Part shown: piece after piece, positions 15,940 to 46,935 of the stretch
Position numbering within the stretch: the stretch's first letter is position 1
Layout: each line of letters opens with the position of its first letter
Source of the DNA: Escherichia phage PE37
Direction: 5' to 3' (one strand)
Length of the DNA: 64,000 nucleotides
Sequence record: NC_054929.1
The notes under the pieces: generated by a model
Told to the model about the DNA's origin: nothing
Database searches by the model: none
Seen by the model: only the letters and a program-made list of their open reading frames with translations
Program-made: the position numbers and the translations under genes

Positions 15940-16151
15940 TGCTCGAAGGAACTGACTATATTCACGATTACCGCGGAAGCGCGGTATATGTAGGTGATGA
16001 AGTTGCAGTTTATTATGGGTATGGAACTTTGATGACAGCAAAGGTTATTCAAATTAAAAATAATCGTGCTAAACTCGAAGTTTATTATTCTAATGATGAA
16101 AAGTCTATTTCTAAGTGGAAATACGGCGATTGTATGGTTAAATTGGGGTAA
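15936..16151 (+). CDS. hypothetical protein (71 aa)
   Basis: Track ORF, ATGA overlap. Confidence 0.5.
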   Translation: MMLEGTDYIHDYRGSAVYVGDEVAVYYGYGTLMTAKVIQIKNNRAKLEVYYSNDEKSISKWKYGDCMVKLG

Positions 16152-17779: not shown

Positions 17780-19593
17780 CAATTGAAAAAGAAATTGAAG
17801 GATTGATTCATAAAACTAATAAAGACCTTTTAAACGAGAATGCTAATAAAGATTCTCGTGTTTTTCCAACTCAACGGGACCTTATGGCTGGTATTGTGTC
17901 TAAACACATTGCCAAAAATATGGTCCCGTCTTTTATTATGAAAGCGCATGAAAGCGGAATTATTCATTTCCATGATATTGATTATTCCCCTGCTCTTCCA
18001 TTTACTAATTGCTGTTTAGTAGATTTAAAAGGAATGCTTGAGAACGGATTTAAGCTTGGTAATGCACAGATTGAAACTCCTAAATCAATTGGTGTTGCTA
18101 CTGCAATTATGGCACAAATTACTGCACAGGTTGCTTCCCATCAATACGGCGGAACGACTTTTGCTAATGTAGATAAAGTACTTTCTCCTTATGTTAAACG
18201 CACCTATGCAAAACATATTGAGGATGCAGAAAAATGGCAAATCGCTGATGCGTTGAATTATGCTCAATCTAAAACAGAAAAAGATGTATACGATGCATTC
18301 CAAGCTTATGAATATGAAGTAAATACTCTCTTTAGTTCAAACGGACAAACGCCTTTTGTAACAATTACATTTGGTACGGGAACTGACTGGACTGAACGAA
18401 TGATTCAGAAAGCAATTCTGAAAAATCGTATTAAAGGTCTCGGTCGTGATGGGATAACTCCTATTTTTCCTAAGCTTGTTATGTTCGTCGAAGAAGGCGT
18501 TAATCTTTACAAAGACGATCCGAATTACGACATTAAGCAACTTGCTCTAGAGTGCGCAAGCAAAAGGATGTATCCTGATATTATTTCAGCTAAGAACAAT
18601 AAAGCTATCACCGGCTCATCTATTCCTGTTTCTCCAATGGGTTGCCGCAGTTTCTTGAGTGTGTGGAAAGATTCAACCGGTAATGAAATTCTTGATGGAC
18701 GTAATAATCTCGGTGTTGTAACGCTGAATCTTCCTCGTATCGCATTAGATTCTTATATTGGAACACAGTTCAATGAACAGAAATTTATCGAATTGTTCAA
18801 TGAACGAATGGATTTATGTTTTGAAGCTTTGATGTGCAGAATTAGTTCCTTAAAAGGAGTTAAAGCGACTGTTGCTCCTATTCTTTACCAAGAAGGTGCA
18901 TTCGGGGTTCGTCTTAAACCTGATGACGATATAATTGAGTTATTTAAAAACGGCAGAAGTTCAGTGTCTCTAGGATACATTGGTATTCACGAATTGAATA
19001 TTCTTGTCGGTCGTGATATTGGACGAGAAATTTTAACTAAAATGAATGCTCATCTTAAACAGTGGACTGAAAGAACCGGTTTTGCTTTTAGTTTGTATTC
19101 TACACCTGCTGAAAACCTGTGCTATCGCTTCTGTAAACTTGATACTGAAAAATATGGAAGTGTAAAGGATGTTACTGATAAAGGCTGGTACACTAACAGT
19201 TTCCACGTTTCAGTAGAAGAAAATATCACTCCGTTTGAAAAGATTTCTCGCGAAGCACCATATCATTTCATTGCGACAGGTGGCCACATTTCTTATGTTG
19301 AACTTCCTGATATGAAAAATAACTTAAAAGGTCTTGAGGCTGTATGGGATTATGCCGCACAACATTTAGATTATTTTGGTGTTAATATGCCGGTAGATAA
19401 ATGTTTTACATGCGGAAGTACCCATGAAATGACTCCTACTGAAAACGGATTTGTTTGTTCTATTTGTGGAGAAACTGATCCTAAAAAGATGAACACAATA
19501 AGAAGAACATGTGGTTATTTGGGAAATCCGAACGAACGCGGATTTAATCTCGGTAAAAATAAAGAAATCATGCATAGGGTTAAACACCAATGA
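17776..19593 (+). CDS. nrdD: anaerobic ribonucleoside-triphosphate reductase NrdD
   Basis: 605 aa, C-terminal glycyl-radical region RRTCGYLG; uninterrupted (no intron). Confidence 0.95.
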   Translation: MTIEKEIEGLIHKTNKDLLNENANKDSRVFPTQRDLMAGIVSKHIAKNMVPSFIMKAHESGIIHFHDIDYSPALPFTNCCLVDLKGMLENGFKLGNAQIETPKSIGVATAIMAQITAQVASHQYGGTTFANVDKVLSPYVKRTYAKHIEDAEKWQIADALNYAQSKTEKDVYDAFQAYEYEVNTLFSSNGQTPFVTITFGTGTDWTERMIQKAILKNRIKGLGRDGITPIFPKLVMFVEEGVNLYKDDPNYDIKQLALECASKRMYPDIISAKNNKAITGSSIPVSPMGCRSFLSVWKDSTGNEILDGRNNLGVVTLNLPRIALDSYIGTQFNEQKFIELFNERMDLCFEALMCRISSLKGVKATVAPILYQEGAFGVRLKPDDDIIELFKNGRSSVSLGYIGIHELNILVGRDIGREILTKMNAHLKQWTERTGFAFSLYSTPAENLCYRFCKLDTEKYGSVKDVTDKGWYTNSFHVSVEENITPFEKISREAPYHFIATGGHISYVELPDMKNNLKGLEAVWDYAAQHLDYFGVNMPVDKCFTCGSTHEMTPTENGFVCSICGETDPKKMNTIRRTCGYLGNPNERGFNLGKNKEIMHRVKHQ

Positions 19594-20060
19594 ATTATGA
19601 TAGATTTTATCCTTGCGATTTTGTGAATGGTCCTGGATGCAGGACTGTTCTTTTCGTTACAGGTTGTTTGCATAAATGTGAAGGGTGTTATAATAAATCA
19701 ACATGGAATGCTAGAAATGGTATTCCATTCACTGGTGAAACACTAGAGCAATTAATTGAATGTTTGAATAATGATTATATAGAAGGATTGACTATAACTG
19801 GAGGTGACCCTCTCTATCCTGATAATCGAGATGTTATTCATTGCATTGTTCAAACAGTAAAAAATCTTTATCCTAATAAAAGCATTTGGTTGTGGACAGG
19901 ATATAAGTTTGAAGATATTAAACAACTAGAAATGCTTAAATATGTTGATGTTATTATTGATGGGAAGTATGAGAAAAATCTTCCGACCAAAAAGCTGTGG
20001 CGAGGTTCAGATAATCAGCGACTTTGGTCAAATACCGATGGGGTGTGGAAACATGATTAA
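19590..20060 (+). CDS. nrdG: anaerobic RNR activating protein NrdG (radical SAM)
   Basis: 156 aa, Cys cluster CLHKCEGC; ATGA overlap with nrdD. Confidence 0.9.
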   Translation: MNYDRFYPCDFVNGPGCRTVLFVTGCLHKCEGCYNKSTWNARNGIPFTGETLEQLIECLNNDYIEGLTITGGDPLYPDNRDVIHCIVQTVKNLYPNKSIWLWTGYKFEDIKQLEMLKYVDVIIDGKYEKNLPTKKLWRGSDNQRLWSNTDGVWKHD

Positions 20061-31323: not shown

Positions 31324-31887
31324 ATGAGCTTATTTGAAGATGATATTCAATTAAACGAGCATCAAGTTGCTTGGTATTCAAAAGATTGGACAGCTGTCCA
31401 ATCCGCTGCTGATTCTTTTAAAGAAAAAGCTGAAAATGAGTTTTTTGAAATAATTGGAGCTATTAATAATAAAACTAAATGTTCTATTGCTCAAAAAGAT
31501 TATTCAAAATTCATGGTTGAAAATGCATTATCACAATTTCCAGAGTGCATGCCAGCTGTATATGCTATGAATTTAATTGGATCAGGTTTAAGTGATGAAG
31601 CTCATTTTAATTATCTAATGGCTGCAGTTCCTCGTGGTAAAAGATATGGTAAATGGGCAAAACTGGTTGAAGATTCCACCGAAGTATTGATTATTAAGTT
31701 ACTTGCTAAGCGGTATCAAGTTAATACAAATGATGCAATTAACTATAAATCAATTCTTACTAAAAATGGAAAACTTCCTTTAGTATTAAAAGAACTAAAA
31801 GGTTTAGTCACGGATGATTTCTTGAAAGAAGTGACTAAGAACGTAAAAGAACAGAAACAACTCAAAAAACTAGCATTGGAATGGTAA
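31324..31887 (+). CDS. 62: clamp loader small subunit gp62
   Basis: 187 aa; ATG overlapping gene 44 stop. Confidence 0.9.
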
Positions 31888-37219: not shown

Positions 37220-37851
37220 ATGCGCCACATGTTTATAAGTATAAACATCCTAAAACTAAAAAGTGGTATATAGGAAGTCATGATGGTCACAACCCGAATT
37301 ATGATGGTTCGGGTGTAGTTTGGCAACATGCTAAAAAGAAATATGGAATAAAATCCTTTAATAAAGAAATATTATATGAAGGACCAATGTTTAGACAGGT
37401 TGAAGAAATTATTTTAACTTGTTTAGATGCTGCTAATTGTCCGGATTCATATAATTTAAAGAATGAAGCATGGGGAGGAAGTTTTCCAGGCAAATTAAAT
37501 GGAATGTACGGTAAAAAACTATCTCCAGAAGAAAGATATAAGTGCGGAAATGCCTTTCGTGGAATCAAGCGTCCTGATCATTCTAAAAGAATGAAAGGCG
37601 AAGGTAATCCAATGTATGGTAAAAATGAGCAAGCATATGGAATTATAAATCGAGCAAAGGAAAATTCTGGTAAAACTTATGAAGAAATTTTTGGCGCAGA
37701 AAAAGCTAAAATAATTAAAGAAACGATGTCTAAAAATCGTAAAGGAAAACCTCATAATTTGATAGAAAAAATATGTCCGTATTGCGGACTAAAAGGACGT
37801 GGGCCAAATATGACAAGATACCATTTTGACAAATGTAAGGCACTTAAATGA
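37210..37851 (+). mobile_element. GIY-YIG homing endonuclease gene (Seg-like, free-standing)
   Basis: N-terminal VYKYKHP-x5-WYIGS motif, repeated GxxxS/NPMYGK motifs, C-terminal CPYC-x-CxxC zinc finger; absent at this locus in T4. Confidence 0.7.
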
Positions 37852-38690
37852 TTCAATTCGTAATTCCAAGCTATCAACGCGTAGGGGCAGTTTCTGCCCT
37901 TGATATGTTTCCGACTGATTATGAACCTCATATTGTAGTACGTGAACATGAAGAAAAAGCTTATTATGACGCTTACGGGTCTAGGGCTAAAATTATAACT
38001 ATTCCTGATGATGTTAATGGAATTGCTGGTACTCGTAAAGCAATTACTGATATGTATGCAGGTCAACGAATCTGGATGATTGATGATGATACTACTATTC
38101 GTATGAGTTCAATGCGAAAAAGAGATGATCGTCGTTGTGTGGATAAAGTCAATCAATTGACTCGTGAACAGTTCTATGAATTGATTCAATATGTTGAGGA
38201 TGCCATGGATTGTGGGTATTATCATGGCCATGCTCGTCTACCTATTTTTAAAATTACTTCATCTTGGGGTAATTATCGTGAAAATTCATATGGATTCACG
38301 AATACATGGTATGACCTCGGAAAACTTACGACAGAACAAATTGGGTATGGAAAAATTGATTTGTGCGAAGATATGTATGCATTTCTCAATTTAATTAATC
38401 AAGGTTATCCGCATTTGGCCTTGTTCAAATATCTGGTTGTATCTGGAAAAGCACAAGCTCCTGGCGGGTGCAGTTCAATTCGTAGTAATTCTAAACATAA
38501 TAGAGCGCTTGAACAAATCAATAGAGAATTTCCAGAGCAAGCTCGTTGGAAAACTTCTAATATTGAAAAACGAAAATCGTTGGGTGAAGAAGATGAGCCA
38601 TTAAAGGTTCTTCGTATGTGTGTTTCGCGCAAAGAAAAATCAGAAGCATTTCATAAGTTTAATGCTATTCATCCGATAGCAGTTGATTAA
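37848..38690 (+). CDS. putative DNA glycosyltransferase (GT-A-like, DxD motif) at the beta-gt locus; candidate T2/T6-type beta-alpha-glucosyltransferase
   Basis: 280 aa; IWMIDDDTT DxD motif; occupies position of T4 beta-gt but is unrelated to the 351-aa T4 protein. Confidence 0.5.
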   Translation: MIQFVIPSYQRVGAVSALDMFPTDYEPHIVVREHEEKAYYDAYGSRAKIITIPDDVNGIAGTRKAITDMYAGQRIWMIDDDTTIRMSSMRKRDDRRCVDKVNQLTREQFYELIQYVEDAMDCGYYHGHARLPIFKITSSWGNYRENSYGFTNTWYDLGKLTTEQIGYGKIDLCEDMYAFLNLINQGYPHLALFKYLVVSGKAQAPGGCSSIRSNSKHNRALEQINREFPEQARWKTSNIEKRKSLGEEDEPLKVLRMCVSRKEKSEAFHKFNAIHPIAVD

Positions 38691-38767
38691 TGCCTAAATT
38701 TATTGTGTTATAATTACTCTATCTTTAACCAGTGAGGAAAATATAATGATGCCTATGGAAAAAATGA

Positions 38768-39949
38768 ATGTCTATTGCAGATTTAAAATCCCGTTTGATT
38801 AAAGCTTCCACTTCTAAAATGACTGCTGAACTGACTACATCTAAATTCTTTAATGAAAAGGATGTAATCCGTACAAAAATTCCAATGCTGAATATTGCTA
38901 TTTCTGGTGCGATTGATGGCGGTATGCAGTCTGGTTTAACTATTTTCGCAGGGCCTTCTAAACACTTTAAATCAAATATGTCTTTGACTATGGTTGCGGC
39001 ATATTTGAACAAATATCCTGACGCGGTTTGTCTATTCTATGATAGCGAATTTGGTATTACTCCAGCTTATTTGCGATCCATGGGAGTTGACCCGGAACGA
39101 GTAATTCATACGCCAATCCAGTCAGTTGAACAGCTGAAAATTGATATGGTGAATCAGCTTGAAGCTATTGAGCGTGGTGAAAAGGTTATTGTATTCATCG
39201 ACTCAATCGGTAATATGGCTTCTAAGAAAGAAACGGAAGATGCTTTGAATGAAAAATCTGTGGCAGATATGACTCGTGCTAAATCACTGAAGTCATTATT
39301 CCGTATTGTTACTCCTTATTTTAGCATTAAAAATATTCCATGTGTTGCGGTTAACCATACAATTGAAACAATTGAAATGTTTAGTAAAACCGTGATGACA
39401 GGTGGTACAGGCGTAATGTATTCGGCTGATACTGTATTCATTATCGGTAAACGTCAGATTAAAGATGGTTCTGATCTTCAAGGGTATCAATTTGTTCTAA
39501 ATGTAGAAAAATCTCGTACCGTTAAAGAAAAAAGTAAATTCTTTATTGATGTTAAATTTGACGGTGGTATCGATCCTTATTCTGGATTGTTAGATATGGC
39601 TCTAGAATTAGGATTCGTAGTAAAACCTAAGAATGGTTGGTATGCTCGTGAATTTCTTGACGAAGAAACCGGCGAGATGATTCGCGAAGAAAAATCTTGG
39701 CGTGCAAAAGATACTAACTGCACTACATTCTGGGGTCCTTTATTTAAGCATCAACCATTCCGAGATGCTATTAAACGTGCTTATCAGTTAGGTGCTATTG
39801 ATAGTAATGAAATTGTTGAAGCTGAAGTTGACGAATTGATTAACTCAAAGGTTGAAAAATTTAAATCTCCAGAAAGTAAAAGTAAATCAGCAGCTGATTT
39901 AGAAACTGACCTAGAACAGTTAAGTGATATGGAAGAATTTAATGAATAA
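38768..39949 (+). CDS. uvsX: recombinase UvsX (RecA-like)
   Basis: 393 aa; Walker A GPSKHFKS; closely matches recalled T4 UvsX. Confidence 0.95.
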   Translation: MSIADLKSRLIKASTSKMTAELTTSKFFNEKDVIRTKIPMLNIAISGAIDGGMQSGLTIFAGPSKHFKSNMSLTMVAAYLNKYPDAVCLFYDSEFGITPAYLRSMGVDPERVIHTPIQSVEQLKIDMVNQLEAIERGEKVIVFIDSIGNMASKKETEDALNEKSVADMTRAKSLKSLFRIVTPYFSIKNIPCVAVNHTIETIEMFSKTVMTGGTGVMYSADTVFIIGKRQIKDGSDLQGYQFVLNVEKSRTVKEKSKFFIDVKFDGGIDPYSGLLDMALELGFVVKPKNGWYAREFLDEETGEMIREEKSWRAKDTNCTTFWGPLFKHQPFRDAIKRAYQLGAIDSNEIVEAEVDELINSKVEKFKSPESKSKSAADLETDLEQLSDMEEFNE

Positions 39950-40286
39950 AGATGATTTAGATTTAGATCTAGAAATTATCGATGAATCCCCCTCTTCGGA
40001 GGGGGAAGAAGAAAGAAAAGAACGTCTTTTTAATGAGTCTCTTAAGATAATTAAATCCGCTATGGAAAATGTTATCCAGGAGATTGTCATTAAACTAGAA
40101 GATGGTTCTACACATATAGTGTATGTAACTAAACTGGATTGGGTTGATGGAAAGGTTGTAATGGACTTTGCTGTTCTTGACCAAGAAAGAAAAGCTGAGT
40201 TAGCTCCTCATGTAGAAAAATGTATTACAATGCAACTGCAAGATGCATTTAATAAAAGGTCAAAGAAAAAATTTAAATTCTTTTAA
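39942..40286 (+). CDS. 40: gp40 head-initiation-related protein
   Basis: Track ORF 39924..40286 trimmed to ATG 39942; position between uvsX and 41. Confidence 0.6.
   Translation: MNKDDLDLDLEIIDESPSSEGEEERKERLFNESLKIIKSAMENVIQEIVIKLEDGSTHIVYVTKLDWVDGKVVMDFAVLDQERKAELAPHVEKCITMQLQDAFNKRSKKKFKFF
39988..40005 (+). other. stable UUCG-tetraloop hairpin inside gene 40 coding sequence
   Basis: cccctc-ttcg-gagggg, 6-7 bp GC stem, no following T-run. Confidence 0.5.
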
Positions 40287-40295
40287 GGAGTAAGT

Positions 40296-41723
40296 GTGGT
40301 AGAAATTATTCTTTCTCATCTCATATTTGATCAAGCTTATTTTTCAAAAGTTTGGCCATATATGGATTCAGAATATTTTGAAAGTGGTCCAGCTAAAAAT
40401 ACATTCAAATTAATTAAATCTCATGTTAATGAGTACCATAGCGTTCCATCTATTAATGCGTTAAATGTTGCATTAGAAAATAGTTCATTTACTGAAACAG
40501 AATATTCTGGTGTAAAAACACTTATTTCAAAACTGGCTGATTCTCCAGAAGACCACAGTTGGTTAGTAAAAGAAACAGAAAAATATGTTCAGCAAAGGGC
40601 GATGTTTAATGCTACGTCTAAAATAATCGAAATTCAAACTAATGCTGAACTTCCTCCGGAAAAACGAAATAAGAAAATGCCGGATGTTGGTGCTATTCCT
40701 GACATCATGCGCCAGGCATTATCAATTTCATTTGATAGTTACGTTGGTCATGACTGGATGGATGACTACGAAGCACGTTGGCTATCTTATATGAATAAAG
40801 CTCGTAAGGTTCCATTTAAACTCAAAATTCTAAATAAAATTACTAAAGGCGGAGCTGAGACTGGAACACTGAACGTTTTAATGGCTGGTGTTAACGTTGG
40901 TAAGTCATTAGGTCTGTGTTCATTGGCAGCAGATTATTTACAGCTCGGTCATAATGTTCTTTACATTTCAATGGAAATGGCAGAAGAAGTCTGTGCTAAA
41001 CGTATTGACGCTAACATGCTTGATGTTTCTCTTGATGACATTGATGATGGGCATATTTCTTACGCTGAATATAAAGGAAAAATGGAAAAATGGCGTGAGA
41101 AATCTACTCTCGGTCGTTTAATCGTTAAACAGTATCCTACTGGTGGAGCAGACGCTAATACATTTCGATCACTTTTAAACGAATTGAAGCTCAAAAAGAA
41201 TTTTGTTCCAACAATCATTATCGTCGACTATTTAGGTATTTGTAAATCTTGCCGCATTAGAGTTTATTCAGAAAATAGTTACACAACTGTTAAAGCTATC
41301 GCAGAGGAATTGCGTGCTCTGGCTGTTGAAACCGAAACTGTTCTTTGGACCGCAGCACAAGTTGGTAAGCAAGCTTGGGATTCTTCTGATGTTAACATGA
41401 GCGATATTGCAGAATCTGCTGGTCTTCCAGCAACAGCTGATTTTATGCTTGCGGTCATTGAAACCGAGGAGCTAGCAGCTGCTGAACAACAACTCATTAA
41501 GCAAATCAAATCACGATATGGCGATAAGAATAAGTGGAATAAGTTTTTAATGGGTGTTCAAAAGGGAAATCAGAAATGGGTAGAAATTGAACAAGATTCT
41601 ACTCCAACTGAAGTGAACGAAGTAGCAGGTTCACAGCAGATTCAGGCTGAACAGAATCGCTATCAAAGAAATGAATCCACTCGAGCTCAGTTAGATGCTT
41701 TGGCGAATGAATTAAAATTTTAG
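40296..41723 (+). CDS. 41: replicative DNA helicase gp41 (DnaB-like)
   Basis: 475 aa; Walker A GVNVGKS; GTG start after AAGGAG RBS. Confidence 0.95.
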   Translation: MVEIILSHLIFDQAYFSKVWPYMDSEYFESGPAKNTFKLIKSHVNEYHSVPSINALNVALENSSFTETEYSGVKTLISKLADSPEDHSWLVKETEKYVQQRAMFNATSKIIEIQTNAELPPEKRNKKMPDVGAIPDIMRQALSISFDSYVGHDWMDDYEARWLSYMNKARKVPFKLKILNKITKGGAETGTLNVLMAGVNVGKSLGLCSLAADYLQLGHNVLYISMEMAEEVCAKRIDANMLDVSLDDIDDGHISYAEYKGKMEKWREKSTLGRLIVKQYPTGGADANTFRSLLNELKLKKNFVPTIIIVDYLGICKSCRIRVYSENSYTTVKAIAEELRALAVETETVLWTAAQVGKQAWDSSDVNMSDIAESAGLPATADFMLAVIETEELAAAEQQLIKQIKSRYGDKNKWNKFLMGVQKGNQKWVEIEQDSTPTEVNEVAGSQQIQAEQNRYQRNESTRAQLDALANELKF

Positions 41724-41752
41724 TTTACAAACTGACAAGACTATGGTATAGT
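41724..41752 (+). promoter_or_regulatory. T4-type early promoter
   Basis: gtttacaaactgacaagactatggtatagt. Confidence 0.55.
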
Positions 41753-41781
41753 AGTCCTGTTGGTTAAATGAGGAGATTGTT

Positions 41782-41964
41782 ATGGAATTGGTAAAGGTAG
41801 TTTTTATGGGGTGGTTTAAGAATGAAAGCATGTTTACTAAAGAAACCACAATGATGAAAGATGACGTTCAATGGGCTACTACTCAGTATGCTGAAGTTAA
41901 TAAAGCATTAGTTAAAGCTTTCATTGATGACAAGAAAGTATGTGAAGTAGATTGCCGAGGATAA
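41782..41964 (+). CDS. dmd: Dmd antitoxin (inhibitor of host RnlA/LsoA toxins)
   Basis: 60 aa, matches recalled T4 Dmd. Confidence 0.85.
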   Translation: MELVKVVFMGWFKNESMFTKETTMMKDDVQWATTQYAEVNKALVKAFIDDKKVCEVDCRG

Positions 41965-41965
41965 T

Positions 41966-42223
41966 ATGCATATTGTTTTATTTAAACCTACTCCGTATAA
42001 CGTCAGGAAAAATACTCAATTCAAAGCACTTATTGCGGATACGTGGGAATTGGTGTTAGATATTCCAGCAGAAGAAAGTCCTCCATTTGGTCGAGTGGAA
42101 TTTATTAAGTTTGCTGTACGTCCTACGAAGCGACAGATTCGTCAGTGTAAAAGGTATTTTCGTAAGATCGTTAAGCTAGAGAAACAGTTTGTAACATGTG
42201 ATTACGCAGAAATTTTAAAATAA
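41966..42223 (+). CDS. hypothetical protein (85 aa)
   Basis: Track ORF. Confidence 0.55.
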   Translation: MHIVLFKPTPYNVRKNTQFKALIADTWELVLDIPAEESPPFGRVEFIKFAVRPTKRQIRQCKRYFRKIVKLEKQFVTCDYAEILK

Positions 42224-46902: not shown

Positions 46903-46910
46903 TAATTCAA

Positions 46911-46935
46911 GGACTCCCGAAGGAGTCCTTTTTTT
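46911..46935 (+). terminator. intrinsic terminator
   Basis: ggactcc-cgaa-ggagtcc followed by ttttttt. Confidence 0.75.

Follow-up and report, generated by a model that had tools for sequence, protein, structure and literature searches.

A stable C(UUCG)G hairpin in the first codons of gene 40 of a T4-like phage: conservation at the uvsX junction and a probable role at the 3' end of uvsX RNA

A very stable RNA hairpin that follows the uvsX stop codon, and that is written into the first codons of gene 40, is probably a 3'-end-defining, exonuclease-blocking element for the RNA that contains uvsX, a reading to which we give a probability of about 0.6. We favour it because of the RNA 3' end published for T4 and its link to RNA stability, because the versions of the hairpin that lie inside gene 40 have no U-run, and because the structure is tied to the uvsX junction. 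The element is already known in T4, so that its presence here is no discovery; what the comparison adds is its conservation across genera, its occurrence either as a terminator between the genes or as a hairpin within gene 40, and an N-terminal gp40 peptide that is subordinate to the RNA, none of which is mentioned in the accessible literature (the Hinton 1989 primary papers lie outside it). The comparative results therefore refine a known feature and do not amount to a new kind of system.

The window, by which we mean the whole 64-kb stretch of DNA that was analysed, belongs to a T4-like Tequatrovirus, for which the best match over positions 38700-41800 (3.1 kb) is phage ECP52, at 98.1% identity, T4 being at 93.6%. 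In gene 40 and its flanks, 397 of 401 bases are shared with T4, and the hairpin has no difference at all, so that with the same sequence and the same location (between the uvsX stop/gene 40 start and gene 41) the element is no different from the T4 gene 40 stem-loop. The phage that carries it is nevertheless a relative of T4 and not T4 itself, from which it differs upstream of uvsX: where T4 has the homing endonuclease gene segA (AF158101, 23570-24235), the window phage has a glycosyltransferase gene, the product of which matches Pfam TAGT and which a near-identical relative annotates as beta-glucosyl-HMC-alpha-glucosyltransferase. The genes around the hairpin and the other features considered are listed in Table 1.

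On folding, positions 39988-40005, which read CCCCCTCTTCGGAGGGGG, give a 7-bp stem with a UUCG loop, and a flanking U-A pair lengthens this stem to 8 bp, the frequency of the minimum free energy structure being 0.87. The loop is closed by a C-G pair (...CUC UUCG GAG...) and is thus of the extra-stable C(UUCG)G type. The stem holds six G-C pairs and one U-A pair, or two U-A pairs with the extension; of the "6-7 bp all-GC stem" given in a preliminary description made from the letters of this DNA, the length is about right (7 bp, 8 with the extension) and the composition is not. Its other observations, a very stable UUCG hairpin in gene 40 codons (SPSSEGE) and the lack of a T-run after it, stand: the folding calculation that it had suggested gives the energy listed in Table 1, and the stem is followed by AGAAGAAAGA, with no T-run or U-run. 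The hairpin starts 45 nt past the gene 40 ATG and 37 nt past the uvsX stop and takes up codons 16-22. The residues it encodes are outside the Pfam Phage_head_chap domain of gp40 (residues 44-99), in an N-terminal part of about 43 residues which, in the alignment, varies in both length and sequence and is absent from distant homologues. A scan of 39500-40500 with the Rfam covariance models returned no family at E <= 1. Over the 358 nt upstream of gene 41 (39938-40295, + strand), the whole fold has an energy of -85.1 kcal/mol versus -67.4 kcal/mol for shuffles (z = -3.6), and it contains, in addition to the hairpin, long-range base pairs that span gene 40.

Table 1. Features of the window considered in the text (positions in nucleotides of the window)
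Feature	Position	Strand	Remarks
uvsX, RecA-like recombinase, 393 aa	38768-39949	+	stop codon 39947-39949; hairpin follows its 3' end
gene 40, head vertex assembly chaperone, 114 aa	39942-40286	+	ATG overlaps uvsX stop by 8 nt
RNA hairpin UCCCCCUC-UUCG-GAGGGGGA	39987-40006	+	8 bp, C(UUCG)G tetraloop, dG -16.7 kcal/mol; encodes gp40 residues 16-22 (SPSSEGE)
gene 41, replicative helicase, GTG start	40296-41723	+	downstream gene
glycosyltransferase gene, 280 aa	37848-38690	+	upstream of uvsX
hairpin GAAUGGUCCUGGAUGCAGGACUGUUC	19625-19650	+	-16.4 kcal/mol, then UUUUCG
NrdG-like gene	19590-20060		NrdD stop at 19593
CTTCGG as loop of between-gene hairpins	8546, 24332, 25602, 30311, 32483	+	
CTTCGG as loop of a between-gene hairpin	46909-46930	-	
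hairpins at tight stop/start junctions	2067-2085, 15964-15991, 31384-31403, 37289-37316, 37879-37908		

The hairpin is the most stable 28-nt local fold of the 64-kb window on either strand. In six first-order Markov simulations of 64 kb, matched to the window in composition, the minima ranged from -12.3 to -15.7 kcal/mol and none of the six reached -16.7 kcal/mol. In a genome of 34% G+C, its codons are the rarest synonymous choices found in the window (CCC 2.5% of Pro, GGG 6.5% of Gly, TCC 5.3% and TCG 5.4% of Ser, GAG 15% of Glu) and, given the peptide, this string of codons has a probability of about 2e-7. The hexamer CTTCGG is itself over-represented, with 30 copies in the window for 12.4 expected, a number reached by 0 of 100 shuffles; copies of it form the loops of between-gene hairpins on both strands (Table 1).

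Other hairpins of the window also lie just past a stop codon. That at 19625-19650 comes directly after the NrdD stop, 35 nt into the NrdG-like gene, and looks like a full terminator with its U-run, set within codons where the Fer4_12 domain begins. When the first 100 nt after the stop were folded at tight stop/start junctions, those at which the following gene begins at the stop or beside it, 10 of 50 reached -11 kcal/mol or below versus 2.9% of 209 interior coding windows (Mann-Whitney p = 0.027), a count made from crude gene calls and in which some junctions are spurious; hairpins at such junctions are given in Table 1.

In order to follow the structure in relatives, we took gp40 or gp41 as anchor and collected the uvsX-40-41 junction from 110 loci, which come from phages in GenBank and from contigs of IMG/VR; a broad alignment of gp40 lacked any stretch conserved enough to find relatives, and gp41 served in its place. 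Loci are designated below by L numbers where they have no other name. In all sampled loci with uvsX upstream of gene 40, a strong hairpin, of -12 to -20 kcal/mol, is present at 1-80 nt downstream of the uvsX stop. Among the loci that contain gp40, 27 distinct hairpin sequences were found, all at or below -12.1 kcal/mol and with a mean of -15.1 kcal/mol, whereas the strongest hairpin of each control, for which 288 coding windows of 160 nt were used, averages -8.3 kcal/mol and reaches -12 kcal/mol in only 4.5% of them (Mann-Whitney p = 1.4e-17). The same uvsX/gene 40 junction keeps the structure in at least nine phage genera, with differing sequences (Table 2), and L042 and L044 have additional versions. 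Besides UUCG, the loops of the relatives are UCAG, UAAG, GGAA, GAAG, CUA and CUAGU; as the loop is variable, it is the stem, and not the tetraloop, that is the conserved part.

Table 2. Versions of the hairpin in T4-like phages
Phage	5' arm	Loop	3' arm	Encoded peptide
T4 / this window	UCCCCCUC	UUCG	GAGGGGGA	SPSSEGE
RB69	UCCCCUUC	UUCG	GAAGGGGA	
KP179 (Jiaodavirus)	UCUCCCUC	GGAA	GAGGGAGA	SPSEEGD
CJ20 (Gaprivervirus)	GCGGAGGGAGC	UAAG	GCUCCUUCUGU	AEGAKAPS
VR5 (Dhakavirus)	AGAGGGUCA	CUA	UGACCCUCU	EEGHYDPL
CIP9 (Kanagawavirus)	GAGGGCC	CUAGU	GGCCCUC	EEGPSGPQ
PWKp16 (Marfavirus)	AAGCUCCCCUU	GAAG	AAGGGGAGUUU	APLEEGEF

Two records of the sample call for a remark. In locus L015 (IMGVR_UViG_2974573174_000001), one C is missing from the 5' arm, some 60 nt ahead of the gp40 match, where CCCC stands for CCCCC. 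With this loss the hairpin is down to -12.4 kcal/mol and the frame of gene 40 is shifted upstream of the hairpin; the cause is either an error in sequencing the homopolymer or a true frameshift. In Citrobacter phage CkP1 (L029, MW239124.1), gene 40 is annotated from an ATG downstream of the hairpin, while its frame is open from the uvsX stop as in the other genera. The annotated start of gene 40 varies between records, and annotators should be warned that the CkP1 record begins this gene past the hairpin.

The place of the hairpin relative to gene 40 is not the same in all these phages. In the Tevenvirinae genera, in Marfavirus and in two more lineages from IMG/VR, L042 and L044, gene 40 begins at the uvsX stop and the hairpin is 33-55 nt inside gene 40, without a U-run: the 10-nt tails of these in-gene versions have 0-5 U and no tract. 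In Shewanella phage Thanatos-1, Morganella phage Rgz1, Pantoea phage Phynn, L037, L043 and L046-L048, uvsX and gene 40 are apart, gene 40 has no N-terminal extension, and the hairpin comes 1-17 nt past the uvsX stop, in most cases with a U-run behind it (L037 and L043, for instance). One hairpin of these distant relatives, AAAAGGGAC-UUCG-GUCCCUUUUU, has the form of an ordinary intrinsic terminator. Where gene 40 is not preceded by uvsX (L021 and L045, Acinetobacter phage PhT2 among them), there are only background folds, of -7.2 and -6.4 kcal/mol, and gene 40 of PhT2 and of L045 has the N-terminal extension despite having no uvsX upstream. Since the hairpin is present after uvsX and absent without it, it belongs with the 3' end of uvsX and not with gene 40, the part of this contrast without uvsX coming from two loci that are possibly of one lineage.

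In distant environmental T4-like contigs that have no gene 40, uvsX is nearer to gene 41 (L050, L051, L059-L061, L069, L082, L088 and L094). In several contigs of this kind, a very strong hairpin, of -15 to -20 kcal/mol, is found at 23-82 nt from the uvsX stop, and many others have none.

As to its origin, the hairpin would descend from, or be the functional equal of, the intrinsic terminator that directly follows uvsX in the distant relatives; in the Tevenvirinae, where gene 40 begins at the uvsX stop, it would then have been written into the variable N-terminal extension of gp40. Evolution would in that case have gone from terminator to in-gene hairpin.

For T4 itself, an RNA 3' end at a stem-loop upstream of gene 41 has been published. 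In the introduction and the Fig. 5B legend of Kim et al. 2025 (PMC12152347), a segment of T4 from -358 to -1 of gene 41 is used, which corresponds to positions 39938-40295 of the window, and it is stated, citing Hinton 1989, that an in vivo RNA 3' end is found in this 358-nt segment just downstream of a stem-loop. The same parts of that paper report, again from Hinton 1989, that in rho(nusD) hosts more RNA ends at the site and gene 41 mRNA is lowered, and also that the suppressor GoF(D25Y) restores gene 41 RNA post-transcriptionally, via a longer RNA half-life. In the review of Hinton 2010 (PMC2988021), the nusD effect is now put down to nuclease attack on unprotected transcripts and not to extra termination. 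Within 39938-40295, no local fold other than the hairpin reaches -11 kcal/mol and, for this reason, we infer from the figure legend, the fold scan and the identity with T4 that the published stem-loop is this hairpin, the sequence expected for it being CCCCCUCUUCGGAGGGGG. There is no stem-loop annotated at the site in the T4 GenBank record AF158101, and neither the review on T4 post-transcriptional control (PMC3014915) nor the T4 multi-omics paper discusses the site.

According to the reading that we favour, uvsX, 40 and 41 are co-transcribed, and the hairpin would both set and protect the 3' end of the transcripts that carry uvsX. After a cut in the downstream 40-41 RNA, or if this RNA ends too early, 3'-to-5' exonucleases would digest it back and halt at the C(UUCG)G stem-loop, leaving a uvsX RNA that ends immediately past the stem. 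As there is no U-run, most polymerases would read through the hairpin, such that genes 40 and 41 would still be expressed. The 3' end would in this way be produced by a block to exonucleases rather than by termination. A possible counterpoint to this reading is that the hairpin may be of benefit to the downstream 40-41 RNA.

The nearest competitor, which we nonetheless hold to be unlikely, is a weak terminator or pause site devoid of a U-tract, at which some polymerases would stop, giving uvsX-only transcripts and tuning the amount of 40/41 RNA. The in vivo 3' end reported just past a stem-loop and its response to rho alleles, as related in the parts of PMC12152347 cited above, would fit such a site, as would the canonical hairpin plus U-run terminators directly after uvsX in the distant relatives and the very fast folding and high stability of C(UUCG)G hairpins (PMC4371310); the G+C-rich stem-loop of an intrinsic terminator is indeed present (8 bp, 6 G-C, -16.7 kcal/mol). 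Against it, the tail AGAAGAAAGA has no U-run directly 3' of the stem, no in-gene version has one either, and a consensus terminator scan of 38500-42000 did not call the hairpin. The post-transcriptional action of GoF(D25Y) on RNA half-life described in PMC12152347, and the nusD Rho proteins, which do not simply terminate more (PMC2988021), also argue against termination. Finally, T4 RNA-seq from a wild-type host at 5 min gives 46.0, 39.8 and 43.1 reads per nt for uvsX, gene 40 and gene 41 (PMC6024815 Table S1), with no marked drop in transcript across the site at this one time point of steady-state RNA, so that the hairpin is not an efficient terminator. This flat density is at the same time the main weakness of the exonuclease-blocking reading, since it implies that differential stabilisation was small at 5 min or was offset by other promoters.

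A role in translation, by which the hairpin would slow newly started ribosomes on gene 40, or modulate their coupling to uvsX translation, and so keep gp40 low, appears improbable. It would agree with the constant placing of the Tevenvirinae hairpin, always 33-55 nt after the gene 40 start, a distance just beyond the footprint of an initiating ribosome, and with the fact that gp40 is needed in small amounts relative to UvsX. However, elongating ribosomes generally unwind hairpins of such size, the hairpin of the distant relatives is upstream of gene 40, directly after uvsX and before the promoter-like and ribosome-binding sequences of gene 40, and the copies of gene 40 that have no uvsX upstream keep the N-terminal extension yet have no hairpin.

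The comparison of the in-gene versions indicates that it is the RNA structure that has been selected. Compared with T4, RB69 and KP179 each have one compensatory double change from a C-G to a U-A pair, made by synonymous substitutions; among the close homologues, only modest covariation is seen, at 2 of 8 pairs, and the pairwise identity of stem columns is 0.88 versus 0.58 for the flanks. At third-codon positions, the mean pairwise identity is 0.70 in the hairpin and 0.43 in the flanks (p = 0.0025), and when the peptide of each lineage was recoded synonymously 500 times, the natural hairpin surpassed 95-100% of the recodings in stability, in 14 of 14 lineages. G·U pairs occur in several versions, which fold better in the sense than in the antisense strand (-19.2 vs -8.8 kcal/mol for CJ20, -14.2 vs -9.7 for L042, -17.0 vs -12.5 for L044 and -18.0 vs -13.0 for PWKp16). 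As these pairs favour the sense strand, the selected structure is in the mRNA-sense RNA and not in the DNA. A structure kept through compensatory or wholesale changes of sequence and, in several versions, specific to the sense strand, as in conserved structured RNAs, is thus found here, and its persistence with different sequences and compensatory changes implies purifying selection on the structure and not a scar. We propose that the N-terminal peptide of gp40 yields to this structure, taking the form Pro/Ser...Glu/Gly or Glu/Gly...Pro.

These results also bear on what the preliminary description had made of the hairpin. Its suggestion of an RNA processing or stability element is supported by the synonymous-site conservation that it had proposed to look for, which is clearly present, by the 14 of 14 lineages that beat their recodings, and by the identity with T4, for which the sections of Kim et al. 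2025 (PMC12152347) cited above describe, in the 358-nt segment that holds this sequence, a 3' end directly past a stem-loop and tie this end to RNA stability. The likeness it had noted to intergenic terminator hairpins was apt, the distant counterpart being an intergenic hairpin with a U-run directly after uvsX. Its other suggestion, the remnant of a recombination joint, finds no support, since at least nine genera retain the structure at this junction while its sequence varies and its pairs change in a compensatory way.

That the hairpin has no function as nucleic acid, and either results incidentally from the conservation of a gp40 peptide (Pro-Ser-x-Glu-Gly) or is a DNA palindrome (a protein-binding site or a recombination scar), is strongly disfavoured and the least probable account: the peptide PS[SQK]EGE does recur in several genera and the T4-type hairpin folds nearly as well in antisense (-15.8 vs -16.7 kcal/mol), but the peptides of other genera are completely different while the structure persists, the rarest codons of the genome are used and synonymous sites are conserved, 95-100% of synonymous recodings lose the hairpin, the G·U pairs make several versions sense-strand-specific, which disfavours the DNA-level palindrome in particular, and the residues concerned are outside the Phage_head_chap domain, in a region absent from distant homologues.

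Some more specific candidates were also rejected. A target of RegB (GGAG) is present at the loop-stem junction in T4, but RB69 has GGAA and the motif is not conserved. An internal ribosome-binding site formed by GGAGGGGG has no in-frame start at a usable distance, the next ATG being out of frame and about 25 nt downstream. A recoding or bypass signal as in T4 gene 60 does not agree with a frame that is continuous and with flanking residues that align across genera. In the consensus scan of 38500-42000, no late-promoter TATAAATA was found near the hairpin; this core of the T4 late promoter occurs twice in the whole window for 11.3 expected and appears to be avoided in the early/middle-gene region.

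REP-like 3' stem-loops in operons block exonucleases, and Rho-terminated transcripts have trimmed ends. The window hairpin resembles the E. coli REP elements and these trimmed ends in being a stable hairpin without a U-run in a polycistronic RNA, and, if the stem-loop published for T4 is this hairpin, it would also have a 3' end just past the stem that is sensitive to Rho alleles and RNA-stability factors, as with exonuclease-blocking 3' stem-loops, going by the introduction and figure legend of PMC12152347. It differs from the REP elements in that it sits in coding sequence, and must be translated through, and in that it is not a dispersed repeat family. With intrinsic terminators it shares a G+C-rich stem-loop right after a stop codon, accompanied by a U-run in the counterparts of the distant relatives, and it differs from them by the U-tract missing from the window hairpin and from every in-gene version and by the lack of a marked drop in RNA-seq. 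The C(UUCG)G hairpins of T4 mRNA reportedly lie mainly in the regions between genes, unlike the window hairpin, which is inside a reading frame. They have the same UUCG loop, C-G closure and exceptional stability, according to the summary of Tuerk et al. 1988 given in PMC4371310.

A broader scenario, to which we would give slightly less than even odds, is that an ancestral uvsX terminator was captured into gene 40 when the start of this gene moved to the uvsX stop, that it lost its U-run, and that it was kept and repeatedly rebuilt, from new sequences each time, as a decay barrier sensitive to Rho and GoF, which would set how much gene 41 message survives. The N-terminal peptide of gp40 would then be dictated by the RNA, and the hairpin would be the plainest example of something that T4 does more widely, in which the hairpin of a 3' end is hidden among the opening codons of the gene that follows.

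The comparison shows strong and long-term selection on an RNA structure inside protein-coding sequence, and this conservation provides an evolutionary argument that the 3' end described in T4 is functional and not incidental. The hairpins of these phages, which differ in their loops, in whether a U-run follows and in whether they lie within the gene, form a natural set of variants for probing the balance between uvsX, 40 and 41, and they would also be suited to asking what Rho(nusD) and GoF act on.
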